A DNA stretch of 64,000 nucleotides from a virus. Under the pieces are notes generated by a model. That model saw only the letters and a program-made list of their open reading frames with translations. It was not told the origin of the DNA and ran no database searches. The DNA lies in IMG/VR virus record IMGVR_UViG_3300025131_000005; one strand, 5' to 3'. Each line of letters opens with the position of its first letter. Position 1 is the stretch's first letter. Below are positions 132-17,093 of this stretch, one piece after another. Made by a program: the position numbers and the translations under genes.

Positions 132-139
132 ACTATTTA
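132..139 (+). promoter_or_regulatory. ACTATTTA putative late promoter element
   Basis: Recurrent octamer, about 20 nt upstream of the GTG at 159. Confidence 0.6.
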
Positions 140-158: not shown

Positions 159-404
159 GTGAAAATCACGAAAGACAAACTTAATCAAATCATTAATGAG
201 GAAATCAAGAGGCACCAAGTCCTCAAAGAAGTGAAAAAGGTATCACTAGTTGAAGGAAGTAGTCCGCAACTTTTGAAACTCATGAAAGAAAGATTTGAGA
301 AACTGGGCGCAAATTATTTCGAAGCCCTGCAGGAAAATGACAAAGAATTGGCTCAAACCTTGAAAGAAGAGCTGGATAAGATTTTTAACGATTTGAAAAT
401 ATAA
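159..404 (+). CDS. Small protein with MKITK-type N-terminal leader (putative virion internal protein)
   Basis: MKITKDKLNQIINEE, the same leader as ORFs at 14322-16420. GAGG RBS and late motif upstream. Confidence 0.7.
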   Translation: MKITKDKLNQIINEEIKRHQVLKEVKKVSLVEGSSPQLLKLMKERFEKLGANYFEALQENDKELAQTLKEELDKIFNDLKI

Positions 405-411
405 AAAAGTC

Positions 412-440
412 TTGACTTTCTTTCTTGATGTTGCTATATT
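412..440 (+). promoter_or_regulatory. sigma70-type promoter for sbcDC
   Basis: TTGACT (412-417), 17 nt spacer, TATATT (435-440). Confidence 0.65.
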
Positions 441-461
441 ATAGCTTATACTGGAGTTTGT

Positions 462-3400
462 ATGCGATTTGCGCATATTGCGGATACCCACATCCGTAAT
501 TTAAAATACCATAAAGAATATAGAACAGTTTTTAATCAGCTATACGAAAACCTTCGAGAGCAAAAACCTGACTATATTATTCACTGTGGTGATATAGCAC
601 ATACGAAAACTCAGATCAGTCCCGAATATGTGGAAATGTGTTCTGATTTTCTTAAAAGTTTGGCAGATATTGCGCCAACTTATGTGATTCTTGGTAACCA
701 CGATGGAAACTTGCGTAATTCTAGCCGTCAAGACGCCTTAACACCCATTGTAAAGGCTTTGGAGCACCCAACCCTACACCTATTACGTAATGCGGGAGAA
801 ACGCGCTTAGAGGGGAATTTTACGCTGAATGTCTTATCTGTATTTGATGAAGACAATTGGCAACAACCGACTGATAAAAATCGTATAAATATTTCGTTAT
901 ATCATGGGTCTATTTCAAGATGCCAAACTGATTTAGGCTGGACAATGGAGAGAGGTGAAAATGATATTAGCATCTTTGATAATTTTGACTATGGTTTTCT
1001 TGGAGATATTCACAAGACCAACCAAATTTTAGACGAAAAAGGAAAAATTCGTTATCCTGGTTCGACTGTGCAACAGAACCATGGAGAAACAAATGATAAA
1101 GGTTATTTGCTTTGGGATATAAAAGATAAAGAAAATTTTACTTGTGAACATTTTGTCTTATGTAATCCAAAACCTTTTATCACAATAAGATTGACACGAG
1201 CCGGAAGGATGCCCAAGAATATTGATATTCCAAAAGGTGCCAGGGTTCGGCTTCTTTCAGAAAATCATTTGCCTCTAGATACGATTCGTCGAGCAATTGA
1301 TATTGCAAAAACGCGCTTTAAACCCGAAGCCATAACTTATTTAAATCGTTCTAGCGGACAAAGAATTGATATTGAAGAATTAACTAAGTCTCTAATTAAA
1401 GAAGATTTGCGGGATATAACCGTACAGGAGGATTTAATTGGAAAATATTTACAAGAATATCAAGCTGATAAAAAAACAGTTGAAAAGATATTTGCCATTA
1501 ATAGGGTATATAAAACAAAGGTTGAAGAGGAAGAAGAAATTTCACGAAACGTCAACTGGCGTTTAAAAAAAGTTGAGTGGGATAATCTTTTTAATTATGG
1601 AGAAAAAAACTCTATTGAATTCGAGAATTTAAACGGTATTGTTGGTATTTTCGGAAAGAACTTTTCCGGAAAGTCCAGCATTATTGATTCTTTACTTTAT
1701 GCTTTGTTCAATACTACTTCAAAGAATAATCGCAAAAACCTCAATATTATTAATCAAAATAGAAATTATTGTCGAGGCTATGTTGAGATCGATGTTGCAG
1801 AAAAAACCTACAAAATTGAGAGAATAAGTACAAAATATCAAAAGAAACTTCATGGGAACGTTACAATGGAAGCTAAGACCGATCTTAATTTTAGTGTATA
1901 CGATAATGCTATTTGTGAAGAAGAAAGCTTAAATGGAACTTCCAGAAACGAAACTGACAAGAATATCAAAAAGATTTTTGGAAGTTTGGAAGATTTTCTT
2001 TTAACTTCGATGGCGTCACAGCTTGGCTCTCTTTCTTATATTGGCGAAGGATCAACGCGTCGAAAGGAGATTCTTGCTAAATTTCTCGATCTTGAGGTAT
2101 TTGAACGCAAGTACAGAATGGCAAAAGAAGATGCTTCTGATGCAAAAGCTTTACTAAAGAGAGATGAATCTCGTATATTTGATGAAGAACTAGCAGAAGC
2201 ACAATTAAAATATAACGAAAATGAGATTCACCTAACTTTAAAGGAGGAGGAATGTCAAGGTCTAAAAGTTGAGTTGGAACAAAGACAAGAATCTTTACGA
2301 GAAATAACAGAAAACTTGAGAGAACTTCCAGACGAAGTTGTTGATATCGTGCATGTTATTAATAATATTAAAGATTTAAAAGATAAGCTGGAATCTTGTG
2401 AGAATCTTGAAAAAGATATTTCTAATCAAATGGGCGACAAAGAAGAATATATGGCAATGACTGAAAAGTTTTTAAACAATCTTAATATAGAAGAAGCCAA
2501 AGAAAAACAAAAAGAGATTGAAGATAAAACCTTAGAACTAAGAAGTTTCGAAGAAGAAATAGAGAAGCTTCTGGAAGAGCTGGAACGCAAGAACAAAAAA
2601 ACTAGCTTATTAGACGAGGTACCTTGTGGAGATAAGTTTCCAAAATGCAAGTTTATTCAAGATGCGCATACAGCCAAAAAAGGTATTAAACCAACAAAAG
2701 TCGGAATTGATAACCTAAAGATCGATAAATCTAATATTTCTAATAATATAGAGAAACTTAATCCTAATGAAGTTTCGAAACACGTTCAGGAATATGAAAA
2801 TCTTTGGCAGAAATTAACTGAGGCCAAAAATGGTTTAAATCTCATTCAACTAGAACTCGAAAAAAATAAAAATGAGATATTTAAAACGAAAAATGATCTT
2901 AGTGAATTAGAGAGGCAAGAAGAATATTATGATGAAAACAAAGATCTTATTGAAAACTATGATAAACTATGCACTCGACAAAAAAATATTCAACTAGAAG
3001 TGGCGAAAATGAGCACACACTATGAAAAATGTCAAAAAGAAATTTTAGAACTTTATAAGGAGAATGGTTCATTAGAGGAAAGAACCGAAAAGATTAGCCG
3101 GGATAAAGAAGAATATCTCGCATTGCAAGATAACTTTTCTGCTTACGATCTTTATATGCGTTGTATGCATTCGAATGGAATTTCCTATGATATTATTAAG
3201 AAACGACTTCCGTTAATTAATTCTGAGGTATCAAAAGTTTTAGCCAATATTGTTGATTTTGAGATTTTCTTTGAAAACGACGATAACCGCTTGGATATAC
3301 TAATAAAACACCCTGGTTATGAACCGCGACCTATTGAAATGGGATCCGGAGCAGAAAAGACTATTGCTGCCATGGCTATACGTTTAGCATTGCTGAATGT

Positions 3401-3614
3401 CTCTACGTTACCGAAGGGGGATATATTTGTTCTCGACGAACCAGGAACGTCTCTAGACGAAGACAACATGGAAGGCTTTATACGTATTTTAGACATGATT
3501 AAGACACAGTTTAAGACGGTACTTCTTGTGTCTCATTTAGATTCCTTAAAAGATACAGTAGATACCCAAATAATGATTGAGAAGAAAAAAGGATATGCTT
3601 TCGTTAAACAGTAG
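462..3614 (+). CDS. sbcCD: Fused Mre11/SbcD nuclease and Rad50/SbcC ATPase (T4 gp47+gp46-like)
   Basis: Phosphoesterase motifs ADTH, CGDIAH, GNHD, GDIH. Walker A GKNFSGKS, long coiled coil, signature MGSGAEK, Walker B FVLDEP, VSH switch. Confidence 0.93.
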   Translation: MRFAHIADTHIRNLKYHKEYRTVFNQLYENLREQKPDYIIHCGDIAHTKTQISPEYVEMCSDFLKSLADIAPTYVILGNHDGNLRNSSRQDALTPIVKALEHPTLHLLRNAGETRLEGNFTLNVLSVFDEDNWQQPTDKNRINISLYHGSISRCQTDLGWTMERGENDISIFDNFDYGFLGDIHKTNQILDEKGKIRYPGSTVQQNHGETNDKGYLLWDIKDKENFTCEHFVLCNPKPFITIRLTRAGRMPKNIDIPKGARVRLLSENHLPLDTIRRAIDIAKTRFKPEAITYLNRSSGQRIDIEELTKSLIKEDLRDITVQEDLIGKYLQEYQADKKTVEKIFAINRVYKTKVEEEEEISRNVNWRLKKVEWDNLFNYGEKNSIEFENLNGIVGIFGKNFSGKSSIIDSLLYALFNTTSKNNRKNLNIINQNRNYCRGYVEIDVAEKTYKIERISTKYQKKLHGNVTMEAKTDLNFSVYDNAICEEESLNGTSRNETDKNIKKIFGSLEDFLLTSMASQLGSLSYIGEGSTRRKEILAKFLDLEVFERKYRMAKEDASDAKALLKRDESRIFDEELAEAQLKYNENEIHLTLKEEECQGLKVELEQRQESLREITENLRELPDEVVDIVHVINNIKDLKDKLESCENLEKDISNQMGDKEEYMAMTEKFLNNLNIEEAKEKQKEIEDKTLELRSFEEEIEKLLEELERKNKKTSLLDEVPCGDKFPKCKFIQDAHTAKKGIKPTKVGIDNLKIDKSNISNNIEKLNPNEVSKHVQEYENLWQKLTEAKNGLNLIQLELEKNKNEIFKTKNDLSELERQEEYYDENKDLIENYDKLCTRQKNIQLEVAKMSTHYEKCQKEILELYKENGSLEERTEKISRDKEEYLALQDNFSAYDLYMRCMHSNGISYDIIKKRLPLINSEVSKVLANIVDFEIFFENDDNRLDILIKHPGYEPRPIEMGSGAEKTIAAMAIRLALLNVSTLPKGDIFVLDEPGTSLDEDNMEGFIRILDMIKTQFKTVLLVSHLDSLKDTVDTQIMIEKKKGYAFVKQ

Positions 3615-3639
3615 GTCAATACTAAACCCTCTCTGAGAT

Positions 3640-3647
3640 ACTATTTA
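3640..3647 (+). promoter_or_regulatory. ACTATTTA putative late promoter element inside an inverted repeat that overlaps the RBS
   Basis: ctctgag(3631-37)...ACTATTTA...ctcggag(3651-57). RBS GGAGG at 3654-58. Confidence 0.6.
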
Positions 3648-3666
3648 TTACTCGGAGGATTATAAA

Positions 3667-3864
3667 ATGGCTAGAGCTGCAAAAGCATTCTTAGATAAAC
3701 ATTTAGAGAGATTCATATCTCGCAAGTTTTTGGCATGGGGTACCGCAACGTATTTGGTTATCCTGGGTGGGGTTACCAGCGACGATTGGGTTGCTGTTAC
3801 TTTGGTATATATTGGTTCCGAAGCGTTGGTCGACATCGCTGCCAGGTGGAAACACGGGAGCTGA
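3667..3864 (+). CDS. Small membrane protein, holin-like
   Basis: 65 aa with two hydrophobic segments after SRKF, a charged N-terminus and a strong RBS. Confidence 0.55.
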   Translation: MARAAKAFLDKHLERFISRKFLAWGTATYLVILGGVTSDDWVAVTLVYIGSEALVDIAARWKHGS

Positions 3865-3869
3865 TAAAA

Positions 3870-4253
3870 TTGGTAGGTCTTCACAAAGCTTGGGTTTGGT
3901 TGAAGAATTATTGGTATATCCCAATTATTCTTGTTTTAATTTTGGTTGCTGCCTTCTCGGGCAGTGGAATCAAAAACAAATATTTTGATATTCTTTTGAA
4001 AGCAAAAGAAAACCATAGGAAAGAGGTTGAAATCATTGAGAAAAACCACGCCGAGGAAAAGCAGAAAACTCAAAATGCCATCAAAAAATATCAAGAAAAC
4101 GTTTCTGCCATCGAAAAAGATTTCAATGTTAAAATGGAAGAACTACCAAAGAAACAAAAGAAAGAAGTTGATAAAATCATTGAAAAGTACGAAGATGATA
4201 CAGACGCCATGGCTAAAGAGATAGCTAATATATTGGGAGCAAGAAATGATTAA
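3870..4253 (+). CDS. N-terminally anchored coiled-coil protein (i-spanin-like topology)
   Basis: Track ORF 3735..4253; likely start TTG 3870 after GGGAG. TM segment WYIPIILVLILVAAF followed by a charged coiled coil. Confidence 0.55.
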   Translation: MVGLHKAWVWLKNYWYIPIILVLILVAAFSGSGIKNKYFDILLKAKENHRKEVEIIEKNHAEEKQKTQNAIKKYQENVSAIEKDFNVKMEELPKKQKKEVDKIIEKYEDDTDAMAKEIANILGARND

Positions 4254-4710
4254 GAAGATTTTTATAGCATTTTTGACTGTTTGTTTTTTATGTTCGACGA
4301 CAAACGCAGCTTCTCAAGAATTAGAAGAGCAAGAAGGTCGCGTTACCTCTATTTCCAAAAATGAAGCAGCCCCGTTTTCAGGAATCCTCTTAGACTCTAT
4401 TGCGGGGGCAAAGTTCATAGCAAAAAACAAATATTGTTCTGAGGAAATGGAACTTAAGCTCCGAAAAGAATTTCAGATTCAATTGGCCGATAAACAACTT
4501 ACCATCGATGTTTTACAGGCACAGTATGATTCTCTCAAAAAAACACATAATGGATTCCTAATTCAGAAAGAAGAAGAGATATCTCAACTTAACGAGATCA
4601 TTAAAGACGAGATTGATGATCATTCACATATTTGGTTTGCCACTGGAACAGCTTTAGGAATATTGCTTTCAATTGGAATCTTCTTTGCAGCAGTGGAGAT
4701 ACAAGACTGA
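4246..4710 (+). CDS. Exported coiled-coil protein with C-terminal TM helix (possible spanin partner)
   Basis: Signal peptide MIKKIFIAFLTVCFLCSTTNA and C-terminal hydrophobic helix. No canonical lipobox. Confidence 0.55.
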   Translation: MIKKIFIAFLTVCFLCSTTNAASQELEEQEGRVTSISKNEAAPFSGILLDSIAGAKFIAKNKYCSEEMELKLRKEFQIQLADKQLTIDVLQAQYDSLKKTHNGFLIQKEEEISQLNEIIKDEIDDHSHIWFATGTALGILLSIGIFFAAVEIQD

Positions 4711-5300
4711 TGGCTAGAAGAGGAACGATTGCCAATTATAGCTATGCCAAGCTTGCCAAGATAATTTCCGAAGAATCAGCTGGTGTATCTTCAGCTGCAG
4801 CTGCGGGCTCAAATTTTCAATTACAATGGAACAGCAGCGGTTCTCATGCAGGCGCAACAGACATAATTTACCAAAAATCAACCGGATATATGGGCACAGG
4901 TGTCACAGAGCCAAATATTACACATAGAATAACATTACCCAATACATCTGATGCAGGTGGTCAAATCAAAGCAAATGCTTATATCACCTATTCAACACGC
5001 CGCTTGAAAAAAGATATCAAGCCTTTGGAGAATTCATTGAATATCGTTACAAATCTTCAAGGTGTGGAATTCCGCTGGAAAGATAGCAATAAATTGGACT
5101 ATGGTTTTATTGCCGAAGATGTCGGGAAAACGTTGCCGGGGGTAGTACAATGGGAAGACAATGGGGATGATGCCCATGGAATGGACTACACAAAAATAAT
5201 ATCATTTCTTGTTGAGGCTGTAAAAGAACAACAAGAGCAAATAAGCGAACTAAAACATTTGGTTAAGAACAGTTGCTCTCCTTGTTGCAAAAAGAAATAA
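4710..5300 (+). CDS. Short fibre-associated protein with peptidase S74 intramolecular chaperone domain
   Basis: YSTRRLKKDIKPL...GVEFRWK...GFIAED...MDYTKII...LVEAVKEQQ. Start couples to the upstream stop (ATGA at 4710). Confidence 0.8.
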   Translation: MARRGTIANYSYAKLAKIISEESAGVSSAAAAGSNFQLQWNSSGSHAGATDIIYQKSTGYMGTGVTEPNITHRITLPNTSDAGGQIKANAYITYSTRRLKKDIKPLENSLNIVTNLQGVEFRWKDSNKLDYGFIAEDVGKTLPGVVQWEDNGDDAHGMDYTKIISFLVEAVKEQQEQISELKHLVKNSCSPCCKKK

Positions 5301-5400
5301 GTATTTTGTTGTATTAAACGCAATCCGTCTCTTCCGCTCGCCTATTTATGGCACGGGATTTTATATCTCGTTTAGGCTATATTTATAGGAGGATTTTTTT

Positions 5401-7383
5401 ATGGCTACTTATGGAAACAACGCTACAGGCGTTGGAACAATTGGGTGTGGAGTTATCACATCCACCGGAGCACTTACGTGTTCTTCGGGAATTTTAGTGG
5501 GTAGTGCCACTATTGAGGAGGCTGACTTGGAGACCATCGATGGTTTAACCAAAGGCACGGCCACGGCCAACAAGGTACTTGTTTTGGACTCAAATAAAGG
5601 CATTACTGGTATTACGCAGCTAACCGCTTCGTATATAAGCGGGACTTCGGCTCAGTTTACCGATCTTGCCGTTTCGGCCAACTCGTTAACGGTTGGTACT
5701 ACAACAATCAGTGCAACCGAGATGGCATATCTTGATGAAGTTTCAGCTGGTACTGCAGCTGCTTCTAAAGCACTTGTTTTGGATGCTAGCAGTAATATTG
5801 GTACAATTAACCAATTAACAGCTTCGTATGCAAAGATCGGTTACCTTGACGTAGAGGAAATCAACAGCGTTAGCAGAACTGAAACAACTCTTGAAGTTGT
5901 TGACAAGCTTATTCTCGCTGCTTCTGGATCAGCATCTGCAGCTGCAGATGGCTCTGGTCTCCAGTTCGGTGGCACCAGTGGCACCGATTCTGTAGCTTCT
6001 GTGCTTTATGAGCACACGGGTGCGAAACTTGAGTTGAAAATTGCTGGTACGGCATATGCTTCGGTAGATGCGGCTGGTATGGACGTCACAGGTGACTTAG
6101 ACGTCACAGGTGACTTAGATGTCCAAGGTGACCTTGCGGCAGCTACTTTGACGATGACTGGTTTTACTGTCGACGATGATGGGGACACTGCGCTCAAATC
6201 CCTTGCTGTTGACAATAGCTCAACCATCGGTTGTGACGCTGATACCGACATCATGACACTTGCTAGCACTTCTTTGGTTCTTGCTAACGATGTTGATTTC
6301 AACGTTGCTAAAGCTGGCGGTTTGCAAATTAATGGTACCGCAGTTACTGCGACTGCTACTGAACTCAACTATGTTGACATTACCACTCTCGGTACTGCCG
6401 AAGCTTCTAAAGCTCTTACCATCGCGGCTGATAGCTCTTGGACAGTTGCCGGTATGACTTGCGCCAATCTTGGTACTGTATCTGCCGCAACATCAATAAC
6501 TGCTACCGATTTAGTTGGTACCAATGTTGATGGTATTATTGGCTATGACACTCCACGCGCTAGTAAGTTCACAACCATTTCCGGTTCTGGCATATTGCAA
6601 GTTGGCGGTGTCTCTTATCACAATGGTAATATACAGCCCGTCAATAGTAATACTCATGATTTAGGCAACGGCGGCATGAAATGGAAAGATCTTTATCTTT
6701 CCGGAACTGCTAACGTTGGTTCTTTAACAGATGGAACTGCAACGTTGAACGCCGGCAACCTTTCTGGTCTAGGCGGTGTCACATCCACAAATGCCACAAT
6801 TACTACTTTGGCTGTTGCTGGATTCGGCGCTGCTGGTGATACCGGTCTTGTCGCTCTCACTAGTGATACTATGACCATGGCTGGTGGTAGTACTATCGCT
6901 GCACAGGTCGTAAGTTCAACTGGATTTACGTGCACCGGTAACGTTACTCTCGGCTCCGGGTCGGCCGACCGCGTGGTCCTTACTGGTAATGTGACTTCTT
7001 CAGCGGGTATTTATATTTCTGGTAAATCTGGTACATTCCCTTTGCAGCTTGCGTCTGGTCAAGGTGGTGTTAAAGCTGATGAATTCATCACTTATTCAGA
7101 TCGTAACTTGAAAACTAATATCCAACCAGTGGAAAATGCGTTAGATAAAGTTATGAAATTAGAGGCTGTTACTTATGACAAGAAAGCAACTGGTAAAAAA
7201 GAAATTGGCTTCATCGCTCAGGATGTTGCTCAAATTATTCCAGAAATTTGTTCTTTCGAAGAAGGCGGCGAAGCTAGAGGTATGGATTATTCTAGGATAA
7301 CCTCACTTCTTGTTGGAGCTGTTAAATTGCAGCAAAGTCAAATTAGTGCACTTCATGCTATTATTAAAAAGTTACAATCATAA
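5401..7383 (+). CDS. Tail fibre/spike protein with C-terminal S74 chaperone domain
   Basis: Gly/Thr/Ala-rich beta-repeat body. C-terminus YSDRNLKTNIQPV...GFIAQD...MDYSRI. Confidence 0.85.
   Translation: MATYGNNATGVGTIGCGVITSTGALTCSSGILVGSATIEEADLETIDGLTKGTATANKVLVLDSNKGITGITQLTASYISGTSAQFTDLAVSANSLTVGTTTISATEMAYLDEVSAGTAAASKALVLDASSNIGTINQLTASYAKIGYLDVEEINSVSRTETTLEVVDKLILAASGSASAAADGSGLQFGGTSGTDSVASVLYEHTGAKLELKIAGTAYASVDAAGMDVTGDLDVTGDLDVQGDLAAATLTMTGFTVDDDGDTALKSLAVDNSSTIGCDADTDIMTLASTSLVLANDVDFNVAKAGGLQINGTAVTATATELNYVDITTLGTAEASKALTIAADSSWTVAGMTCANLGTVSAATSITATDLVGTNVDGIIGYDTPRASKFTTISGSGILQVGGVSYHNGNIQPVNSNTHDLGNGGMKWKDLYLSGTANVGSLTDGTATLNAGNLSGLGGVTSTNATITTLAVAGFGAAGDTGLVALTSDTMTMAGGSTIAAQVVSSTGFTCTGNVTLGSGSADRVVLTGNVTSSAGIYISGKSGTFPLQLASGQGGVKADEFITYSDRNLKTNIQPVENALDKVMKLEAVTYDKKATGKKEIGFIAQDVAQIIPEICSFEEGGEARGMDYSRITSLLVGAVKLQQSQISALHAIIKKLQS
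6082..6135 (+). repeat. 18-nt tandem repeat x3 encoding (DV[T/Q]GDL)3
   Basis: gacgtcacaggtgactta twice, then gatgtccaaggtgacctt. Confidence 0.9.
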
Positions 7384-7425
7384 GGTTGTAAAATGTTAAC
7401 AATTTACATTTAATAATGTAAGATA

Positions 7426-7458
7426 AAGGCTCCTGGGGTTTCTGATCCCAGGAGCCTT
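7426..7458 (+). terminator. Stem-loop terminator after the fibre gene
   Basis: Perfect 12-bp stem aaggctcctggg/cccaggagcctt with a 9-nt loop. The U-tract is weak. Confidence 0.7.
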
Positions 7459-7482
7459 CTGCTTGTGAGATCTATTTATAAT

Positions 7483-7881
7483 ATGGAAAAAGATTGGGAC
7501 CAGATTGCACAAGTTGAAAAAGCTATTCGTCAAAAATATGGTAAAGATGCAATTATAAATCCTGCTTCAAATTGGTCGGAGGCCAAAGAAAAAGAATATC
7601 TGAAGCAAATAAAAGAGATTTCGAATAAACAAATCTCTTTGGATGAACAACAAGAGAAAGTAGAAGTGGATGGATTTTTAATAAACAAAAAACTACTTAC
7701 TAGGGAAATAAAAACAAACTGCCCGGTTTGTAAATTAAGGTTAAATACAATTAAAGACGATACATGTTTTAATAAATATGAATGTTGTTACAAATGCTAT
7801 ATAAATCACATTGAAGATCGCGAAGAGCGATGGCTTCAAGGATGGAGACCAGGAGAAACCAAATGTCACAAAAAGATTTAG
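7483..7881 (+). CDS. Hypothetical protein with Cys-rich (Zn-binding) C-terminus
   Basis: CPVC...C...CCYKC. ATG 7483 lies 4 nt after TCTATTTA. Confidence 0.7.
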   Translation: MEKDWDQIAQVEKAIRQKYGKDAIINPASNWSEAKEKEYLKQIKEISNKQISLDEQQEKVEVDGFLINKKLLTREIKTNCPVCKLRLNTIKDDTCFNKYECCYKCYINHIEDREERWLQGWRPGETKCHKKI

Positions 7882-8357: not shown

Positions 8358-9932
8358 ATGTCATTCAGGCTTTCCAGAGAGCAGATTTTAAAGGAAATAA
8401 TAAAATCTGGCAAGGATCCTGCATATTTTATTAATAATTATGCTAGAATTTCTCACCCACAAGAGGGATTAATTCCATTTAAGACTTATGATTTTCAAAC
8501 AGAACTTTTAAAGGATTTTAACGATTACCGTTTTAGCGTAATTTTAAAAGCTCGCCAACTTGGAATTTCAACAATAACAGCAGCTTATGTTGCTTGGTTG
8601 ATGATGTTCCACAAAGAAAAGAATGTGCTTGTTATCGCCACACAATTCAAAACTGCCTCGAATCTCGTTAAAAAGGTAAAAGCAATTCATAGAAATCTTC
8701 CAGAGTGGATGAAAATTGCAGAGATTTCGATAGATAATAGAACTTCTTTTGAATTAACAAATGGTTCACAAATAAAGGCTTCTTCTACTTCTTTGGATGC
8801 TGGACGTTCAGAAGCATTATCTTTATTGGTAATCGACGAGGCAGCCCATATTGAGGGTCTAGACGAACTTTGGACAGGTTTGTATCCCACCCTATCAACG
8901 GGAGGCCGCTGCATCGCCCTGTCCACTCCAAATGGTGTTGGCAACTGGTTTCACCAAACATGTATGGACGCTGCGCAAGAAGATAATGATTTTAAGTTAA
9001 CGACGCTATTATGGAATGCTCATCCTGATCGTGATCAACAATGGTTTGAGAATGAAACTAAAAACATGTCCCGTCGCCAAATTGCACAAGAACTTGAATG
9101 TAATTTCAATATGTCTGGAGAAACAGTATTCCACACCGACGATTTAGAGATTATAGAAAATGGTTTAGTCGAACCTAAATACAAAACAGGTTTTGATCGT
9201 AATTTCTGGATTTGGGAAGAATATCAAGAAGGTTCAACATATTTGCTATCAGCAGATGTTGCACGAGGCGATGGAAAAGATTATTCTACCTTTCATATCT
9301 TCAAAATAGAGACGATGGAGATCATAGGAGAATACGTAGGCAAAGCAACGCCAGATTTATTTGCCAATATGTTAAATGAAATTGGAAAAGAATATGGTAA
9401 GTGCATGATAGTTGTTGAAAATAATACAATAGGTTGGACAGTGTTGAGTAAATTGCAAGAATTGGGATATCCTAATTTATTCTATTCTTATAAATCTAGT
9501 CATGAATATGTTGAGCCTGCAACCGGCGAATTGGCTAATAATGCTGTTATGGGTTTTTCAATGACTTCAAAAACTCGTCCCTTGGTCCTAGCTAAGTTAG
9601 AAGAATTCGTTAGAAATAAACTAGTTACGATATATTCCAGAAGGACTCTTAATGAAATGAAGACTTTTGTATGGCAATATGGCAAACCACAAGCAATGAA
9701 AGGGTATAATGATGATTTGACAATCGCATTGGCAATTGGATGTTGGGTTAAAGACATAGCTTTTGAAGTTTCGCAGAGAGATGTAGAATATAAAAAAGCT
9801 TTCTTAAATTGTATTACCAAAGGTGATACAATCATAAATACTTCTATTTCAGGAATGCATGGTTTTAAGCATAATAAAGAAATACATGAAAGAGAAAAAT
9901 ATGAAGATTTTATTTGGCTCCTCAAAGGATAA
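8358..9932 (+). CDS. terL: Terminase large subunit (T4 gp17-like)
   Basis: Walker A ILKARQLGIST, Walker B LVIDEAAH, coupling motif STPNG, nuclease motifs SADVARGDGKDYS and NDDLTIA. Confidence 0.96.
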   Translation: MSFRLSREQILKEIIKSGKDPAYFINNYARISHPQEGLIPFKTYDFQTELLKDFNDYRFSVILKARQLGISTITAAYVAWLMMFHKEKNVLVIATQFKTASNLVKKVKAIHRNLPEWMKIAEISIDNRTSFELTNGSQIKASSTSLDAGRSEALSLLVIDEAAHIEGLDELWTGLYPTLSTGGRCIALSTPNGVGNWFHQTCMDAAQEDNDFKLTTLLWNAHPDRDQQWFENETKNMSRRQIAQELECNFNMSGETVFHTDDLEIIENGLVEPKYKTGFDRNFWIWEEYQEGSTYLLSADVARGDGKDYSTFHIFKIETMEIIGEYVGKATPDLFANMLNEIGKEYGKCMIVVENNTIGWTVLSKLQELGYPNLFYSYKSSHEYVEPATGELANNAVMGFSMTSKTRPLVLAKLEEFVRNKLVTIYSRRTLNEMKTFVWQYGKPQAMKGYNDDLTIALAIGCWVKDIAFEVSQRDVEYKKAFLNCITKGDTIINTSISGMHGFKHNKEIHEREKYEDFIWLLKG

Positions 9933-9940
9933 TTATATAA

Positions 9941-11935
9941 ATGGCTAACAGAAATTCAAATCCCCATAATCCCCAACATCAACTTTTTAAGAAATTGACA
10001 AAATTGTTGTCAAGTCCCATAAGTACTTCTAAACAACAGCATCCCAGATCTATGCGCAGGTTGCAATTAGATAATTATGCTTCCAAATTTAAATCTGCCA
10101 CTGGCCAGTCGTTCAAAAAAACAGAATATGGGCAAAAAGGTAACTATACTGCCAATTATATGGCAAATCAAAATCGTGCTGACAGATATACTGATTTTGA
10201 TCAGATGGAATACACACCAGAAATTGCTTCTGCTATGGATATATATGCAGATGAAATTACTACTTCTACTGAAATAACACCGTTGCTCAATATCAAGACA
10301 CATGATGAAGAGATTAAGATTGAGCTTGAATATTTATTTCATCAAATATTAAATATAGAGTTTAATATTTTTGGATGGGCACGCTCCTTATGCAAATTTG
10401 GAGATTTCTTTCTTTATTTAGATATCGATGAACAAGAAGGAATAAAATATGCAATAGGTTTACCTGCACAGGAAGTGGAAAGATTAGAAGGGGAAGATCC
10501 CGATAATCCCAATTATATTCAGTATCAATGGAATTCTGCTGGCTTGACTTTAGAAAATTGGCAAGTTGCCCACTTTAGAGTTTTGGGCAATGATAAATAT
10601 ACGCCGTATGGGACTTCTGTTTTAGAACCCGCACGACGCATTTGGCGTCAACTTACTTTATTAGAAGATGCGATGATGGCATATCGTATTGTTAGATCAC
10701 CAGAGAGAAGAATATTTTATATTGATGTCGGTAATATTCCTCCGCAAGATGTAGAACAATACGTCCAGCGAATCATGTCACAAATGAAAAGAAATCAAGT
10801 GGTTGATTCTACAACCGGTCGCGTTGATTTGCGATATAATCCAATGTCTGTAGAAGAAGATTATTTTATTCCTGTTCGTGGCGGGCAAGAATCCACAAAA
10901 GTGGAAAGTCTTGCGGGCGGTCAGTTTACCGGTGATATCGATGACGTGAAGTATCTTCGCGATAAATTATTTAGCGCCCTTAAGGTTCCACAATCATATT
11001 TAACTCAAGGTGAAGGAGCAGAAGAAGATAAGACCACACTAGCTCAAAAAGATATCCGGTTTGCTCGCACAGTTCAACGATTGCAAAGATCAATTACCGC
11101 AGAGTTAGAAAAGATTGCAATTGTTCATTTATTCGCCAGAGGATACAGAGGAAAAGATTTAACTTCATTTAAGCTTTCTTTAAATAATCCTTCGAAATTA
11201 GCACAATTACAAGAATTGGAAAATTGGAGAACTAAATTTGAAATTGCTTCTGGTGCCACAGAGGGATTTTTCAGCAAACGATGGATAGCCAAAAATATTT
11301 TTAATCTCTCTGATGAACAGATTTTAAGAAATGACAGAGAAATGTTCACTGATAAGAAAATGACCGCAATGTTTGAAAAGGCCGCAGAAGAAATTACTAC
11401 CGGTGAAATGGCAGGAGAGGAAATGGGCGGCGACATGGGCGGCATGGGCGGTGGAGGAGAACTTGGACTCGGCGGTGAGGGCGAAATGGATATGGAAGGT
11501 GGAGAAGAGCTTGACATGGAAGGTGGAGAAGAGCTTGGAGGAGAAGAGGCAGGAGCTGTAGAAGAGCCTACATTACTAGCTGCTCCCGGTAATCGCGATG
11601 TATCCAAGGAATATAAAAAGGAAAACGGAAAGATGAAAGCCAAGACAGCCAATTCCAAAGGGTGGTATAACGTAAAAACCAGAAACCAAGGTGATAAAAG
11701 GAAGAAAGCTGGGAAGAGAAAACATATGAAGGGTCAGTATGGGAAAGAGAACGGTGCACCCACAAAAAGAAAAATATTTCCAGGAAGTGAAATTAACACA
11801 CTAGGATATGGCGTAACTGAAAATATTGAACCTAATTATAATATTGAACAAGAAATATTACAAACTAATACAGAAGTTAAAAATCTGATTGAGATTTTGG
11901 AGTCCAAGTATAATAATGAAACACAGACACAATAA
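9941..11935 (+). CDS. Portal protein (T4 gp20-like) with long acidic then basic C-terminal extension
   Basis: YRIVRSPERRIFYIDVGNIP, EDYFIP, GGQFTGDIDDVKY, ALKVPQSYL. Follows terL. Confidence 0.95.
   Translation: MANRNSNPHNPQHQLFKKLTKLLSSPISTSKQQHPRSMRRLQLDNYASKFKSATGQSFKKTEYGQKGNYTANYMANQNRADRYTDFDQMEYTPEIASAMDIYADEITTSTEITPLLNIKTHDEEIKIELEYLFHQILNIEFNIFGWARSLCKFGDFFLYLDIDEQEGIKYAIGLPAQEVERLEGEDPDNPNYIQYQWNSAGLTLENWQVAHFRVLGNDKYTPYGTSVLEPARRIWRQLTLLEDAMMAYRIVRSPERRIFYIDVGNIPPQDVEQYVQRIMSQMKRNQVVDSTTGRVDLRYNPMSVEEDYFIPVRGGQESTKVESLAGGQFTGDIDDVKYLRDKLFSALKVPQSYLTQGEGAEEDKTTLAQKDIRFARTVQRLQRSITAELEKIAIVHLFARGYRGKDLTSFKLSLNNPSKLAQLQELENWRTKFEIASGATEGFFSKRWIAKNIFNLSDEQILRNDREMFTDKKMTAMFEKAAEEITTGEMAGEEMGGDMGGMGGGGELGLGGEGEMDMEGGEELDMEGGEELGGEEAGAVEEPTLLAAPGNRDVSKEYKKENGKMKAKTANSKGWYNVKTRNQGDKRKKAGKRKHMKGQYGKENGAPTKRKIFPGSEINTLGYGVTENIEPNYNIEQEILQTNTEVKNLIEILESKYNNETQTQ
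11489..11536 (+). repeat. 24-nt tandem repeat x2 (DMEGGEEL) in the portal tail
   Basis: ga(t/c)atggaaggtggagaagagctt twice. Confidence 0.9.
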
Positions 11936-12728
11936 GAAAAGAAATACGGCAATTTTATATGAAACCCTTATTCGTGAATTAACTCGCTCTAGTATTCGTG
12001 AAAACAAAAAGTGTAAGAATAAAATTATGAAATTGTTGAAAGAGCATTTTAATAAGAATTCAATCCTTGCATATGAATTAGAATTATATAATATTTTAAA
12101 TGAAAGAGGGGGTTTTAAGAAAGAGATTGCTGAAAAGATTTTAAATGAAGCCAAAAGCAAACATGCCAAATTAAACCGAAAAGCTATTTTTAAAGAACAG
12201 TCAAAGCTTATTAAGAACATTAATTATCAAGTAGGACAAGATTTATGGGAAAACTATGTGTCCAGTTTTAAAGATTTTGCGTCCATATACCAAATTTTTT
12301 ATGATACTGCGAGTGCGAAACAGAAGATTTTTCTTGAGGAACAAACCATAGAGAAGATGACGCTCCCTCCCCTTGCAAAAGAAGAAAAATATGGTGCTAT
12401 CAATAATCTTGCCTTTAAAACATTTTTAGAGAAATTTAATGAAAAATATAGTAACAAATTATTAAAGGAGCAGAAGGAATTACTTTCTTTATATGCAACA
12501 AGTTTCAACAAAAGTGATCTGGAATTAAAGATTTTTCTTAATGAAGAAATAAGTCGTCTTAGAGATACTATTGAGAATGATACTAAATCAACTCTTGAGG
12601 AAAGCAACAAAGAACAATTATTGAAATTATTGAAATCTTTCTCCGGCATGCCTATTGGTAAAATGATGCTGGAAAAAGTACTTAAAATTCAAAAATTAAC
12701 AAACGAGATGAGTAATTATGGCAATTAA
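11916..12728 (+). CDS. Hypothetical head-module protein
   Basis: Likely start ATG 11916 (MKHRHNKKRNTAILYETLIREL). Helical; lies between portal and protease. Confidence 0.75.
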   Translation: MKHRHNKKRNTAILYETLIRELTRSSIRENKKCKNKIMKLLKEHFNKNSILAYELELYNILNERGGFKKEIAEKILNEAKSKHAKLNRKAIFKEQSKLIKNINYQVGQDLWENYVSSFKDFASIYQIFYDTASAKQKIFLEEQTIEKMTLPPLAKEEKYGAINNLAFKTFLEKFNEKYSNKLLKEQKELLSLYATSFNKSDLELKIFLNEEISRLRDTIENDTKSTLEESNKEQLLKLLKSFSGMPIGKMMLEKVLKIQKLTNEMSNYGN

Positions 12729-13284
12729 AGTTAAAATAAGCGAACCGGATAAAATTCTCGTAAAAATAAGTGAGAAAGAAGAGCCTGACGAAACAGTTGA
12801 ACTTAAGGCTAGAAAAAGTCTTGCTGGTGATATTATGATATTTGATCATAATGAAATTGATATTGTGGTGATGCCTGAAAAAAAGAAAATTTTAACTTTT
12901 GCAAAAGAATATTATGGCGACGAGGTATATGAAGCACAGAATCGACTTTTTACTTTTTTAAGGAAAAGAGGGGTGGTGCAATATGACAGTATTGCTGGTT
13001 CGAATATATATTATTCCATGGAGGCCAAGTTACAAGAATCAGAAGAATACAATTCGGTTCAACATGCTCTGTTAGCTATAGCTCGATTTATTGATGATGA
13101 AAGACCACTTATGGAATTTGAAAAGGCATTTGATGAACAAGAAGAAGAGCGTCTAGATTCACCAGCACCGGGTGAATTTACGGAATTGGATCCCGAAAGA
13201 CAGTCAGAAAAGAAAGGCAGCATTCATCCTGGTCATTTTCCATACGGATTACAGCATGCGGCTGTATATCGTTTGGAGGAATAG
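12718..13284 (+). CDS. Hypothetical protein (head module)
   Basis: 188-aa ORF overlapping its neighbours in operon fashion. Confidence 0.7.
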   Translation: MAIKVKISEPDKILVKISEKEEPDETVELKARKSLAGDIMIFDHNEIDIVVMPEKKKILTFAKEYYGDEVYEAQNRLFTFLRKRGVVQYDSIAGSNIYYSMEAKLQESEEYNSVQHALLAIARFIDDERPLMEFEKAFDEQEEERLDSPAPGEFTELDPERQSEKKGSIHPGHFPYGLQHAAVYRLEE

Positions 13285-13631
13285 TGAGCACCATACATTT
13301 TATTCTCTGCTGTTATGGTTTAACTTTTCTTCTAGTTTATGGTTCCATTTTGGATTGGATACGACCCACTAGTGGTAAGTTAGGGAAATTATTTCATTGT
13401 CCCCTTTGTTTGGGCTTTTGGGTTGGCATATTTTTATGGGCTTTGAATGGTCAGACAGAACTATTTAGTTTTGATTACAAACCATTTACAGCATTTTTGT
13501 GTGGCTGTCTTTCAGCCGGCACGTCGTACTTTTTCAGTATGTTAGTAAAAGATTATGGATTAAATTTAAACGTGAGGTTGGAAAATGAAGAAGAGAAATA
13601 CGCCGGAAGTTCGAAGATGCTGCTCGGGTAG
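13284..13631 (+). CDS. Small membrane protein (DUF1360-like)
   Basis: Hydrophobic helices with LFHCPLCLGFWVG. Confidence 0.65.
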   Translation: MSTIHFILCCYGLTFLLVYGSILDWIRPTSGKLGKLFHCPLCLGFWVGIFLWALNGQTELFSFDYKPFTAFLCGCLSAGTSYFFSMLVKDYGLNLNVRLENEEEKYAGSSKMLLG

Positions 13632-13650
13632 CTTTATCATGCAGGAGTGA
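13585..13650 (+). CDS. Candidate 21-aa micro-ORF MKKRNTPEVRRCCSGSFIMQE upstream of the prohead protease
   Basis: GAGG at 13574-77, ATG 13585, TGA 13648-50 inside a hairpin. Below the track size cut-off. Confidence 0.4.
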   Translation: MKKRNTPEVRRCCSGSFIMQE

Positions 13651-13659
13651 ATCCTGCAT
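13639..13659 (+). promoter_or_regulatory. Hairpin in the leader of the prohead protease gene
   Basis: atgcagga-gtgaa-tcctgcat, perfect 8-bp stem. Confidence 0.55.
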
Positions 13660-13680
13660 ACATTTTGGAAATACAAACAT

Positions 13681-14319
13681 ATGTCGAAGAAACTTTTACA
13701 AGAATATTTTGAACTTTGTCCCGATGGCCAATGTGTTATCGATATTTTATCGGAATCTGAACGAAAGCGTGTGGTTAATGAAGGAGCTATTTATCTAGTT
13801 GGTGTTTGCCAAAAGTCCGGTACTAAAAATGGTAATGGAAGGATTTATCAGAAACCTACACTTGAGAGAGAAGTAGAAGCTTATCAGAAAGCGGTTAAAG
13901 AAAGAAGATCTTTAGGAGAACTTGATCATCCCGATGAGAGTGTTGTGAATCTTAAAAATGCTTCGCATCTTATATCAAAAATGTGGTGGGATGATGACAA
14001 TGTGATGGGAAAGGTTGAAGTTCTCGATACTCCTTCTGGTCGTATTCTCAAAGATTTAATTAAGGCTGGAGTTAAGCTTGGAATATCGTCGCGAGGCTTG
14101 GGCACCGTAAGCGAAGCTAATGGTGTTACAATGGTTGAAGATGATTTTCAATTGATTTGCTTTGATATCGTTTCAGAGCCTTCAACACCTGGCGCTTATA
14201 TGAAGCCACAAAAATCAATGTCTTCGCCTCCAATGGATGCAGAGATTGGTGTTTATCTAAACGAAAATAAAGAGAAATCAAATTTAAACGATCTTATTCA
14301 AGATATATTAGGAGACTAA
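13681..14319 (+). CDS. Prohead core protease (T4 gp21-like, peptidase S77)
   Basis: NGNGRIY, GELDHP, GISSRGLG, FDIVSEPSTPGAY. Confidence 0.95.
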   Translation: MSKKLLQEYFELCPDGQCVIDILSESERKRVVNEGAIYLVGVCQKSGTKNGNGRIYQKPTLEREVEAYQKAVKERRSLGELDHPDESVVNLKNASHLISKMWWDDDNVMGKVEVLDTPSGRILKDLIKAGVKLGISSRGLGTVSEANGVTMVEDDFQLICFDIVSEPSTPGAYMKPQKSMSSPPMDAEIGVYLNENKEKSNLNDLIQDILGD

Positions 14320-14321
14320 AA

Positions 14322-15800
14322 GTGAAGATCACAAAAAAGAAACTTAAGCAAATTATCAAAGAAACCATTGAAGAACAACAAGAAGGAGGTTTAGTAAATA
14401 TTAACGCTGGACCGCAACACGTCTTGCAAGTGGTACCCAAATTGTTGAGTAATCCAAAACTTAAGGATATCATACGCTCCGGTCAAACCGATGCAGCGGG
14501 ACCAGGAGATGAGGTTATCGAAATTAGGGCCGACACGCGCATCGCCAGTAAATTATCTCCCACTCAAAGTCAAATTGGAGCGGATCAAAGTCTCAATGAT
14601 CAGGCAAGTGATGAAGATTTTGGAGGCGGTGATCCCACGAATCTTGATCGTGCAATTAGAGGGGGGAAACTAGCTTCAAAAGGAGGAGAATTTCCCATTT
14701 TAGTATTTAAGAATTGGGTACTCGATGGGCACCATCGCTGGAGCCAGTTTGTGGCAACAAATCCTGGTGCTACTGTAAATGTTGCTGAGATAGTGGCTCC
14801 TGGAGTTAGAGATGAAAAAACTGCTTTAGCGTTGCTTCATTATATGAATTTTGCTCTTTTTGGTAAATCTCCTACTAAAGATTTCAAGGGCACAAATCTT
14901 TATACTATGAACGCTCAACAAATAAAAGACCAGGCTTTGAAGAATATGTCGGAAGATACTCCTAAGAAGCTTTTTGCTGCCAAACTAATTGCTGAACCAA
15001 CAGCAGAAGCAGCTGCAAATCATTTTGCTAACAATTTAAGTAAAATTAATGGTCCTGGTAAGTACCCTAGGCTTGTAATGCCGCAGCCTGGAGATTCTGG
15101 ATCCAAGGACGGCTATGCAACAACACCGGAAGATGCAAAGGCGGGAGCAGTTAATTATATCGCACCATCTCCGCAAGATCTCAAAGAAGGAACTAAAAAA
15201 ATGAAGATCACAAGAGAAGAATTAAACAAAATCATTCAAGAGGAAGCCGGGGTTATTGTTTCAGAAGCTTACGGTAAGCGAGGTTTTTTTGATAGAATGT
15301 TAGGAGCGCCAAACAAAGACGTTAAGCGGATTCTAAATAATTTTGACGACGCAATCATGTCCGCGCTTCGGAATCCCGATGAAACCACCCCCCGATGGAG
15401 ATATGACGCCCTCGTGAAGGCGCACAGGATATATCAACGAGAAATGAAAGATATCGAAGATATCAAAGACATCAGCAAACAGCAGGCAGAAATGATTGCG
15501 TTGACCATGGACTCTTACGCTAAAGCTGAAAAGCGCCAAATTGACCGAATGGATTCCGACGAGCGCTACCGGGCTGAAGAAGAAGCTTCGAAGCGTAAAG
15601 CAGAGCGTGTGGCAAGGGAGAAAGAGTGGCACGCCGCAGAATTGAGGCACCAGGCTGCAGCCAACCTTCCCGTTTCGGACACCCATGGACGTGGAAAAGA
15701 CAAAGACGTAGATTGGGATCTTAGTCGTCATGAAGGCAAGTTCACGAAGGCTGATTTAAAACGCTTGGTTAAGGAAACCATTAAGGGACTAAATAAGTGA
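14322..15800 (+). CDS. Leader-bearing protein with ParB/Srx-like domain; a second leader at in-frame ATG 15201 suggests a fusion or an internal start
   Basis: MKITKKKLKQIIKE, then WVLDGHHRWSQ, then MKITREELNKIIQEE at residue 294. Confidence 0.7.
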   Translation: MKITKKKLKQIIKETIEEQQEGGLVNINAGPQHVLQVVPKLLSNPKLKDIIRSGQTDAAGPGDEVIEIRADTRIASKLSPTQSQIGADQSLNDQASDEDFGGGDPTNLDRAIRGGKLASKGGEFPILVFKNWVLDGHHRWSQFVATNPGATVNVAEIVAPGVRDEKTALALLHYMNFALFGKSPTKDFKGTNLYTMNAQQIKDQALKNMSEDTPKKLFAAKLIAEPTAEAAANHFANNLSKINGPGKYPRLVMPQPGDSGSKDGYATTPEDAKAGAVNYIAPSPQDLKEGTKKMKITREELNKIIQEEAGVIVSEAYGKRGFFDRMLGAPNKDVKRILNNFDDAIMSALRNPDETTPRWRYDALVKAHRIYQREMKDIEDIKDISKQQAEMIALTMDSYAKAEKRQIDRMDSDERYRAEEEASKRKAERVAREKEWHAAELRHQAAANLPVSDTHGRGKDKDVDWDLSRHEGKFTKADLKRLVKETIKGLNK

Positions 15801-16147
15801 AAATCACACAAGAAGAACTAAGCAAAATTATTTACGAAGAGTTAGAGAATGCTTTAAATGAGAGGGATCCATATGGCGGCAACAAGGGTGATGTACATCG
15901 CTCTGAAGACCCTGAATACGGAGATCTTAAAGGTATAGAAGATTACAAACCTGTCGTTGAGGATGAAGAGTTAAAAGAAGAAGATGATTGGATCCAAAAA
16001 GCTGTTGATCCCAAGCATAAAGGATATTGTACCCCAATGACCAAGAAAACGTGTACCCCAGAGCGTAAAGCATTAGCAAAGCGCTTCAAGAAAGCAGCCA
16101 AAAAGAAAGAAAAACAGGGCGGTACTGGATGGCAGGGAGAAGTATAA
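15797..16147 (+). CDS. Leader-bearing small protein with basic C-terminus
   Basis: MKITQEELSKIIYEE...WIQKAVDPKHKGYCTPMTKKTCTPERKALAKRFKKAAKKK. Confidence 0.75.
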   Translation: MKITQEELSKIIYEELENALNERDPYGGNKGDVHRSEDPEYGDLKGIEDYKPVVEDEELKEEDDWIQKAVDPKHKGYCTPMTKKTCTPERKALAKRFKKAAKKKEKQGGTGWQGEV

Positions 16148-16420
16148 ATGAATATTACTAAAGAGAGATTAAAACAACTTATTAAAGAAGAACTTCAACA
16201 GGTAGAGGAAAAATATACTCCTGTGCCAGAAGAACAAATTGCCAATAACCCCGAATCAGCAATTGCTCATATTAATAATGAGTTAACCATTCTGGATAAC
16301 GATATGCAAAAGATTTACGATGATCACGATGCTCTACAAGGTGAGAATGCTGGTATGAAAGAGATAATTCAGAGATTAATAGGTATCGTAAAACGCTTAT
16401 CGAGCGCACAAGGTGAATAA
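16148..16420 (+). CDS. Leader-bearing small coiled-coil protein
   Basis: MNITKERLKQLIKEE. Confidence 0.75.
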   Translation: MNITKERLKQLIKEELQQVEEKYTPVPEEQIANNPESAIAHINNELTILDNDMQKIYDDHDALQGENAGMKEIIQRLIGIVKRLSSAQGE

Positions 16421-16435
16421 ATTTATAGGAAGAAC

Positions 16436-16852
16436 ATGAAAAAGAACGAACTCAAACAAATATTGAAACCTCTTATAAAAGAATGTATTAAAGAATGTAT
16501 TTTTGAAGACGGAGTTTTATCTGGAATCATCACAGAAGTTGCGAATGGTTTGGATAAGCAGCGAGTGGTAGTTGGGGGTCTCACAGTGGAAAATAAGAAA
16601 CAAAACGACCCAGATTCAGAAGAACTTAAAAGACGATCTGAAGAAGCTGAGAAGCAACGCCAAGAAAGAATCAAAAGATTGAATGAATCAGCAAATTTGG
16701 GCACTATGGATGTATTTGAGGGAACCAAAACAATTGCTCCCGAAACTGAAAATACACATGGGGCATTATCCGGGGTTGCTACCGATGATGTTGGAGTAGA
16801 TATTAGCGGTATACTAAATCTTGCGGATGGTAAGTGGAAAAATTTAATGTAA
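16436..16852 (+). CDS. Hypothetical head-module protein with a related leader
   Basis: MKKNELKQILKPLIKECIKE. GGAAG RBS. Confidence 0.72.
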   Translation: MKKNELKQILKPLIKECIKECIFEDGVLSGIITEVANGLDKQRVVVGGLTVENKKQNDPDSEELKRRSEEAEKQRQERIKRLNESANLGTMDVFEGTKTIAPETENTHGALSGVATDDVGVDISGILNLADGKWKNLM

Positions 16853-16862: not shown

Positions 16863-17093
16863 ATGGCTCGAAACGTAAATGTTAGCGTAAGCTTAAACGA
16901 CGTGCGAGGTGATGAATATCGCCTTATTAAGAGATTTATGAAGAAAGTTAAAAAAGAACGCATACTTGAGGACTATTTATCTAGAAGATTTCACGAGAAA
17001 CCTTCGCAAAAGAGAAGAAGAGAAAAGGCTAGAAAAATATGCAATGCCCAAAAAGCAGAGCAAAAGAGAAACAAAAAACTCGATATTAAGTGA
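16863..17093 (+). CDS. rpsU: Ribosomal protein bS21
   Basis: 76 aa, basic. LIKRFMKKVKKERILEDYLSRRFHEKPSQKRRREK matches the bS21 pattern (aLrrFKr...e.r.R.f.eKPs..Rrr). Confidence 0.85.
   Translation: MARNVNVSVSLNDVRGDEYRLIKRFMKKVKKERILEDYLSRRFHEKPSQKRRREKARKICNAQKAEQKRNKKLDIK

Follow-up and report, generated by a model that had tools for sequence, protein, structure and literature searches.

A 16-residue leader heads otherwise unrelated proteins encoded in a 64,000-nucleotide stretch of viral DNA (IMG/VR record IMGVR_UViG_3300025131_000005; hereafter the window, meaning that whole stretch), with most copies lying against the gene for the prohead protease. On balance we favour the reading that this leader, or tag, is a lineage-specific capsid-targeting propeptide of the T4 style, carried by a clade of uncultured marine T4-like phages. 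We infer the later events, namely the docking partner, cleavage, packaging and retention in the virion, and injection. A preliminary description of the window had proposed an address tag of this kind. Its proposal gains from a modular peptide that is linked to the Peptidase S77 and head module and occurs on hundreds of unrelated proteins in relatives, from a position locked to the protease and large terminase (terL) region, from an S77 motif at the end of the tag, and from leaders and a scaffold tail that are exchanged on one cargo family. It loses ground in that four of the nine members listed are off the motif, a fifth (15201) is internal to a longer gene, and the cargo is mostly acidic.

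A six-frame search with the strict pattern [MV][KN]IT-x3-L-x-[QK][IL]I-x-E returns exactly the five leaders first reported, at 159, 14322, 15201, 15797 and 16148, all on the plus strand. These copies score 20.9–33.4 bits against a hidden Markov model (HMM) of the leader. A degenerate DNA pattern recovers four of the five, versus none in 100 shuffles, and misses the copy at 16148, which carries N instead of K at position 2. The first copy opens p159, an 81-residue open reading frame (ORF; 159..404, plus strand; leader residues 1–16 at 159–206, 32.1 bits). Its cargo is small and helical with a predicted mature isoelectric point (pI) of 6.9, and a homolog in locus L096 is 86% identical and starts with ATG. 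The remaining copies adjoin the gene of the prohead protease, a T4 gp21-family enzyme (Peptidase S77; 13681..14319, plus strand; Pfam PF03420, E 3.9e-33), as had been stated, and the cassette starts 3 bases past the protease stop. It opens with a 492-residue ORF (14322..15800, plus strand) that the reading frame and the leader HMM mark as a two-cargo fusion, with leader copy 1, V-K-I-T-K-K-K-L-K-Q-I-I-K-E-T-I, at 14322..14369 (20.9 bits). The copy at 15201 (15201..15248; M-K-I-T-R-E-E-L-N-K-I-I-Q-E-E-A, 30.5 bits), previously taken for a gene of its own, lies in frame within this ORF with no stop before it; an AAGGAA 11 nt upstream makes a separate start possible. Two shorter plus-strand genes follow: p15797 (15797..16147, 116 residues, 33.2 bits), whose start overlaps the preceding stop (GTGA) and whose cargo has two homologs in L049, and p16148 (16148..16420, 90 residues, ATG start, 33.4 bits), whose cargo is an acidic helix of predicted mature pI 4.45. 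The claim that the cargo differs completely holds in the window, where the cargo parts show no mutual BLASTP similarity.

Four looser sequences had been listed as related leaders, and none behaves as a member: 16436 scores 0.7 bits and 48366 −1.5 bits, and the HMM does not match 46448 or 61363 at all. Pfam and PHROGs gave no usable match for 46448, 48366 or 61363. The sequence at 16436 was ruled out of the tag family, being the N-terminus of a separate and highly conserved small protein family. The start codons also needed correction, since the copies at 159, 14322 and 15797 begin with GTG, where ATG had been read. GTG is thus used by three of the five window tags versus 12 of 319 tagged ORFs in relatives, and may lower the dose of those cargo proteins.

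The tag belongs to a distant branch of the T4 superfamily. Pfam identifies a T4-type large terminase (8358–9932), a gp20 portal (9941–11935) and a gp23 capsid protein (23173–24939) beside the gp21-family protease, and all window genes are on the plus strand. The closest cultured phages by terminase, Microcystis phage Mel-JY01 and Flavobacterium phage immuto, are only 43% identical, so the source is an uncultured, distant member of that superfamily. IMG/VR contains 355 relatives of the protease, and 319 distinct tagged ORFs were found there. To see the tag in loci chosen independently of it, 80 loci fetched through the protease alone can be considered: the coding strand has 58 tag HMM matches scoring 6 bits or more and the opposite strand 0, a tagged ORF lies within 1.5 kb of the protease gene in 30 of the 80, and 22 tagged ORFs start within 500 bp 3′ of the protease stop, with nearly none elsewhere within ±6 kb.

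A leader-only DNA pattern finds at least 120 loci in IMG/VR. Among the 120 such loci listed, the neighbours are terL or portal in 44, p11889 in 36, the next gene after the portal in 30 and the protease in 23, while ClpP and replication genes appear in 1–5. Tagged genes have two hot spots, one against the protease gene and the other 0.3–8 kb upstream of terL, where the window copy at 159 falls. In a search of prokaryote genomes totalling 596 Gb, this pattern returned just 28 stretches. Contigs of metagenome-assembled genomes account for 27 of them, several with 5–9 tag copies each, so that these stretches are probably mis-binned phage. Nine of ten tag-bearing contigs of 125–289 kb encode S77. 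The long tag-bearing genomes carry 7–16 or more strict copies each, on one strand only, in arrays that reach nine small genes.

The consensus tag, M-K-I-T-K-x-Q-L-K-Q-I-I-K-E-E-L, has a sharp boundary. Over 303 N-terminal copies, conservation is high at M1, K2, I3, T4, L8, I11, I12 (95%), E14 (98%) and E15 and information content drops to background past residue 16, figures that in part reflect the way the loci were found. Beyond the tag, 298 cargo parts (residues past 22) sort into 238 BLASTP clusters, of which 211 have a single member. Tagged proteins have a median length of 110 residues, and among the 110 longest just four contain a Pfam domain, with no kind occurring twice: a pentapeptide repeat (L110), an AAA_33 domain (L199, in the gene directly before the protease), GNAT and DUF6745. 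Pfam and PHROGs gave no usable match for p159, p15201, p15797 or p16148. The cargo also turns over quickly; the proteases of the window and L049 are 93% identical and their cassettes differ. Tandem arrays of up to nine small tagged genes look like local duplications, and one might see in the tag the N-terminal remnant of a single expanded paralog family whose C-terminal parts have diverged, with no addressing role. This is a very remote prospect, given that conservation stops abruptly at residue 16, that the cargo domains are of independent origin, that one cargo family is tagged in one clade and bears other termini elsewhere, and that the motif also occurs at C-termini and within fusions.

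Such displaced copies number 19, counting internal and C-terminal ones. The internal ones often follow E-[S/N/G]-K, and E-[SNG]-K-M-K-I-T joints recur in relatives. C-terminal copies occur in L048, L118 and L121 and in ParB-like homologs P0002–P0014, and the window contributes a degenerate one: the last 20 residues of ORF 14322–15800, K-F-T-K-A-D-L-K-R-L-V-K-E-T-I-K-G-L-N-K (15738..15797), form a leader-like helix scoring 4.2 bits.

Selection acts on the peptide. Synonymous codons differ among the five window copies, L8 being encoded as CTT, CTT, TTA, CTA and TTA and E14 as GAG, GAA, GAG, GAA and GAA. The second codon is AAA or AAG, and a Shine–Dalgarno-like purine run stands 8–12 nt before every copy, the internal one included, features expected if the conserved element worked as nucleic acid, in translation initiation or as a cassette recombination site, with the peptide incidental; conserved tag DNA at cassette borders could likewise favour the recombination behind in-frame fusions. 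We find this barely credible as the function of the element. The amino acids are 90–98% conserved in copies whose synonymous positions change freely, C-terminal copies can have no initiation role, and recombination at the tag fits equally with capsid targeting, where it is more likely a consequence than a function.

The end of the tag resembles the predicted maturation site of the phage's own capsid protein. In T4, gp21 cleaves behind L/I-x-E and the targeting propeptides span 10–19 residues (PMC9026906); the tag end, I-I-K-E↓E (arrow, predicted cut), matches that rule. The window protease retains the His (GELDHP) and Ser (GISSRGLG) motifs aligned with those of T4 gp21. In the major capsid protein of the gp23 family (23173..24939, plus strand; Pfam Gp23, E 2.7e-74), Q-L-L-K-E↓A-S aligns with the T4 gp23 maturation site F-L-T-E↓A, which predicts a cut after E59 (codon 23347–23349). 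The same site reads Q-I-V-S-E↓A and Q-L-I-S-E↓A in the two cultured relatives, and by this alignment the maturation site of the phage looks like the tag end. In an AlphaFold2 (AF2) model of the first cargo of ORF 14322–15800 with its tag, otherwise at 94, the confidence measure pLDDT (predicted local distance difference test) falls to 64 at residues 11–20, the tag junction, and to 44 at the joint between the two cargo modules. These observations make it likely that S77 is the enzyme that processes the tag.

The fusion ORF shows how tag and cargo are combined. Its modules are, in order, leader 1, a ParB/sulfiredoxin (Srx)-like domain (14385..15188), the joint D-L-K-E-G-T-K-K (15177..15200), leader 2, a 177-residue basic cargo and the leader-like C-terminal helix. 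The joint contains an L-x-E site, closes the ParB-like domain and stands directly before the internal leader. The 492-residue fusion is identical on two contigs (P0001), a similar one is known (P0098), and the most fitting view of the ORF is that two cargo genes were fused at the C-terminal helix. Its first 293 residues have more than 100 homologs, nearly all of them stand-alone proteins of 275–350 residues. The AF2 model of the ParB/Srx-like domain reaches a pLDDT of 94.2, with the tag forming a helix over residues 5–21. The top eight rows of a VIA-align search are all of the ParB/Srx fold (SerK, sulfiredoxin, SbnI, PadC, KorB, Atu1540 and pNOB8 ParB among the names), at Z-scores of only 3.0–4.9, and the top Foldseek rows are weak matches to ParB/Noc (E 0.08–0.6). 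The domain carries invariant D-G-H-H-R-W-S and P-T-Q motifs; D-G-H-H-R-W is invariant in 66 homologs and matches SerK/1vk1 weakly (E 0.3). A Pfam scan of this cargo gave no match. The gene lies directly 3′ of the protease in 13 of 27 loci holding both, and is otherwise also found upstream of terL.

Within this one family the terminal peptides are exchanged. In the nearest homologs a variant of the tag opens the protein and another tag-like helix closes it, following D-[IL]-[KQ]-E-S-K; across the family, the position equivalent to the window joint reads D-[ILV]-[KQ]-E-[SE]. Other lineages start with M-K-L-L-M-E-N-W-R-K-F, with M-I-K-L-K-D-L-L-K-E (L300:2547 and L301:848) or with the L-A-G-L motif, and 53 of 105 homologs end D-V-K-E-(E)-S...E-R-W-x-x-L-A-G-L. 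The last of these peptides recurs in the protein at the scaffold position, whose conserved C-terminus in the window, immuto and Mel-JY01 reads R-W-x-x-L-A-G-[IL]. In the window this is a 401-residue protein of pI 4.2 with 24 [ILV]-x-E sites, encoded directly 5′ of gp23 (21944..23149, plus strand) and ending N-R-W-K-T-L-A-G-L-N-K-T-T-R (tail 23108–23149). It has 2931 homologs; a comparison of its family with T4 gp22 by hhalign was not significant, for which reason the protein is named by position and composition, and Pfam and PHROGs gave no usable match for it. Over all loci, 52 of 55 matches to the tail motif lie within 12 residues of an ORF end, and on cargo proteins the tail usually follows [ILV]-x-E-[ST]. 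Several tail-bearing ORFs are proteins of 550–1055 residues 3′ of the protease, and seven such proteins of relatives gave no usable match in Pfam and PHROGs. One cargo family with alternative terminal peptides, one of them copying the scaffold, is the strongest indirect evidence for prohead addressing.

A mini-protein of 65 residues is a side observation: the one encoded at L187:3952–4146 (minus strand) joins nothing but a helix resembling the tag, at its N-terminus, to an R-W-K-K-L-A-G-L tail through an acidic linker, and thus has two address peptides and no cargo. In relatives, many ParB/Srx-like homologs, along with other ORFs of the protease cassette, start with another recurring peptide, M-K-L-L-M-E-N-W-R-K-F-(V/L)-N-E (for example L013:7029, L100:4762, L128 and L203), which may be a second address tag. 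The window ORF 46448–47188, among replication genes, starts M-K-P-I-L-K-N-W-R-K-Y-L-K-E and resembles it.

Taken with the favoured reading, these features suggest a mechanism. The tagged genes would be expressed together with the head genes, and the amphipathic tag helix would dock each protein onto the scaffolding core during prohead building. The S77 protease would then cut after Glu14, leaving the mature protein inside the head. The same helix would be reused at C-termini and between fused modules, after an [ILV]-x-E or E-S-K joint; with helix and protease joints between its modules, fusion ORF 14322–15800 would be cut into separate cargo proteins, the predicted cuts falling after E14, E289 (D-L-K-E) and E307 (I-I-Q-E). 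Enzyme-like and DNA-mimic-like cargo (ParB/Srx-like, AAA_33 kinase-like, GNAT and pentapeptide repeat) would probably stay in the head and enter the host with the DNA. More tentatively, one can imagine an exchangeable address code with two ends, an idea we hold possible but doubtful. At the N-terminus would stand a helix that varies with lineage (M-K-I-T-K-x-Q-L-K-Q-I-I-K-E-E, M-K-L-L-M-E-N-W-R-K-F or M-I-K-L-K-D-L-L-K-E), and at the C-terminus the tail copied from the scaffold (R-W-x-x-L-A-G-I), each bordered by a prohead-protease site. The two would load a large and rapidly exchanged set of mostly acidic proteins and enzymes into the capsid for co-injection, the set comprising DNA-mimic-like, ParB/Srx-like, kinase-like and acetyltransferase cargo, and recombination at tag DNA would make and resolve polyproteins.

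Much of the same evidence bears on a different fate for the tagged proteins. They could be accessories of the prohead core or scaffold, like T4 gp67 and gp68, that are recruited by the tag, cut and expelled with no delivery to the host. The cargo is mostly small, acidic and helical, like the scaffold; its genes sit among core genes adjoining the protease; T4 gp67 has a similar stretch, T-I-D-L-I-K-E-E; and the scaffold's own C-terminal tail is found on some cargo. We nevertheless regard this as unlikely, since 238 unrelated cargo clusters and the turnover between phages as near-identical as the window and L049 are unlike structural core parts, as are the enzyme-type and repeat domains of some cargo. 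The protein that closes the window cassette, p16436 (16436..16852, plus strand), is probably a prohead core component. This conserved small head-module protein is present in nearly all relatives, has several I-x-E motifs and ends G-K-W-K-N-L-M in the window, where the family end is G-K-W-K-x-L-I. Its first 40 residues are near-invariant in the family (M-K-K-x-E-L-K-K-x-L-K-P-L-I-K-E-C-I-K-E-C-I-F-E-E-G-V-L-S-G-I). A complex prediction of the scaffold-position protein, p16436 and a 45-residue leader segment scored 0.00, which speaks neither for nor against binding.

The tag might instead be a signal for another phage-encoded machine, either as an N-degron recognised by ClpP or as the leader peptide of a radical-SAM-type modifying enzyme. 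A phage ClpP (PF00574, E 8e-28) is encoded at about 53.5–55.1 kb in the window and in all five long tag-bearing relatives (G001–G005); to our knowledge, ClpP is unusual among T4-like phages. At the level of the locus, a ClpP homolog accompanies the tag in only one of the 120 loci listed, versus 44 for terL or portal and 23 for S77. Radical-SAM linkage was rejected, the enzyme being encoded by only two of the five long relatives, with none found in a relative whose genome is 96% complete; no Radical_SAM match occurs among the 25 listed of 36 window families. A signal for either machine would also leave the C-terminal and internal copies after [ILV]-x-E and the scaffold-tail swap unexplained, and we judge it highly unlikely.

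Several observations weigh against capsid targeting and temper our preference for it. T4 internal proteins are basic and DNA-binding, and the predicted mature cargo here has a median pI of 4.9, with 73% below 6 and 17% above 8. In G002 and other jumbo relatives, 70–140 kb separate the tag arrays from the protease gene, and with ClpP in all five long relatives, co-occurrence alone fails to single out S77. The cultured relatives immuto and Mel-JY01 each have no more than a single degenerate copy; the one in immuto, M-K-K-S-Q-L-R-Q-I-I-K-E-A, belongs to protein immuto136C_190. The residue after the cut, P1′, is Glu in 87% of tags versus Ala at the capsid site and the quoted T4 sites. Finally, the tag shares only M-K and I-x-E with M-K-T-Y-Q-E-F-I-A-E, the capsid targeting sequence (CTS) present twice in exact form in T4, which makes the tag an analogue or very distant homologue and no member of the CTS by sequence. 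In the T4 CTS, the Glu-to-Asp change equivalent to E14D prevents the cut.

Despite this divergence, the two systems agree in design. The T4 CTS of IPI, IPII, IPIII and Alt, removed by gp21, is likewise a short N-terminal propeptide common to otherwise unrelated proteins; the window phage has the S77 protease, gp20 portal and gp23 capsid protein that go with it; both end in I-x-E; and in both the cargo genes vary between close relatives. T4 Alt has propeptides at both its N- and C-terminus (PMC5694885), and the window clade reuses its helix at C-termini. The tag differs in being 16 residues long versus 10, in heading 7–16 or more genes per genome and hundreds of cargo families versus three or four in T4, in a cargo that is mostly acidic, in the helix also found inside fused cargo, in tagged genes placed against the protease gene, and in being known from sequence alone. 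In the giant phages phiKZ, 201phi2-1 and SPN3US, a gp21-related protease removes long propeptides from ejection and inner-body proteins and trims many proteins inside the head, cutting after Glu; SPN3US gp53 and gp54 have identical N-termini on diverged paralogs, and giant-phage propeptides have multiple cut sites (PMC5694885). Those propeptides are mostly longer than 100 residues with no single portable tag, and the protease is of family S80 with the motif S/A-x-E.

The tail has its own precedent. Because the scaffolding proteins of tailed phages bind coat protein through a C-terminal peptide, as in P22 gp8, the R-W-x-x-L-A-G-[IL] tail kept by the scaffold-position protein, and copied by many non-scaffold proteins beside the protease, can be compared with that principle; T4 gp22 differs in having no such tail, and capsid binding of the tail is suggested here only by analogy. 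The preliminary description had also named this the best candidate for an undescribed system in the window. The principle is not new, given the T4 CTS; what appears undescribed is the sequence of the tag, the scale on which it is used and its placement at C-termini and internal joints. No description of it turned up in the literature searched by tag string or by capsid targeting in marine, metagenome and cyanophage contexts, and the Far-T4 paper (PMC4360716) does not mention it. The 22-residue consensus gave just three weak tblastn rows (E at least 3) against 50,697 cultured and GenBank phage records, and the cassette gave no blastn match in the same set.

Were the tag a capsid address, its 16 residues would mark the proteins that an abundant, uncultured group of ocean phages, those with genomes of 240–300 kb included, carries in the capsid and probably delivers to the host cell, and candidate injected effectors, such as anti-defence proteins and host-takeover enzymes, could be listed from sequence. 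The T4 loading mechanism would then be ancient, portable and much expanded beyond the T-even phages, and a second address copied from the scaffold tail, together with protease-jointed polyproteins, would offer a route of cargo shuffling. Should the two-ended code be true, the tag would be a handle by which to read the injected effector repertoire of uncultured phages from metagenomes. The tag might also serve to package foreign proteins in the capsids of phages other than those of coli.

Upstream of the isolated gene p159, a CTATTTA (133..139, plus strand) lies 19 nt 5′ of the GTG and is, from its distribution, a putative late promoter element. The window holds 19 copies of this motif on the plus strand versus 5 on the minus strand. 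Copies at 133, 3641, 5342, 25005, 25226, 27926, 30979, 39932, 48353, 55137 and 61323 stand 3–87 nt before gene starts, mostly of structural genes, and intergenic copies precede 25030, 25259, 27986, 31017, 39943 and others, genes of the neck, sheath, tube and baseplate region included. It is this placement before structural genes that makes CTATTTA a candidate late element, one that differs from the T4 late promoter element TATAAATA.

Two further genes of the window deserve mention. A fibre-like protein with a Peptidase_S74 chaperone domain (4708–5300) has Y-A-K-L-A-K-I-I-S-E-E near its N-terminus, at 7 bits versus the tag core, a likeness that is probably due to chance. Inside the head module, a gene for ribosomal protein bS21 (16863–17093) occupies the same place as in relatives and in Microcystis phage Mel-JY01.

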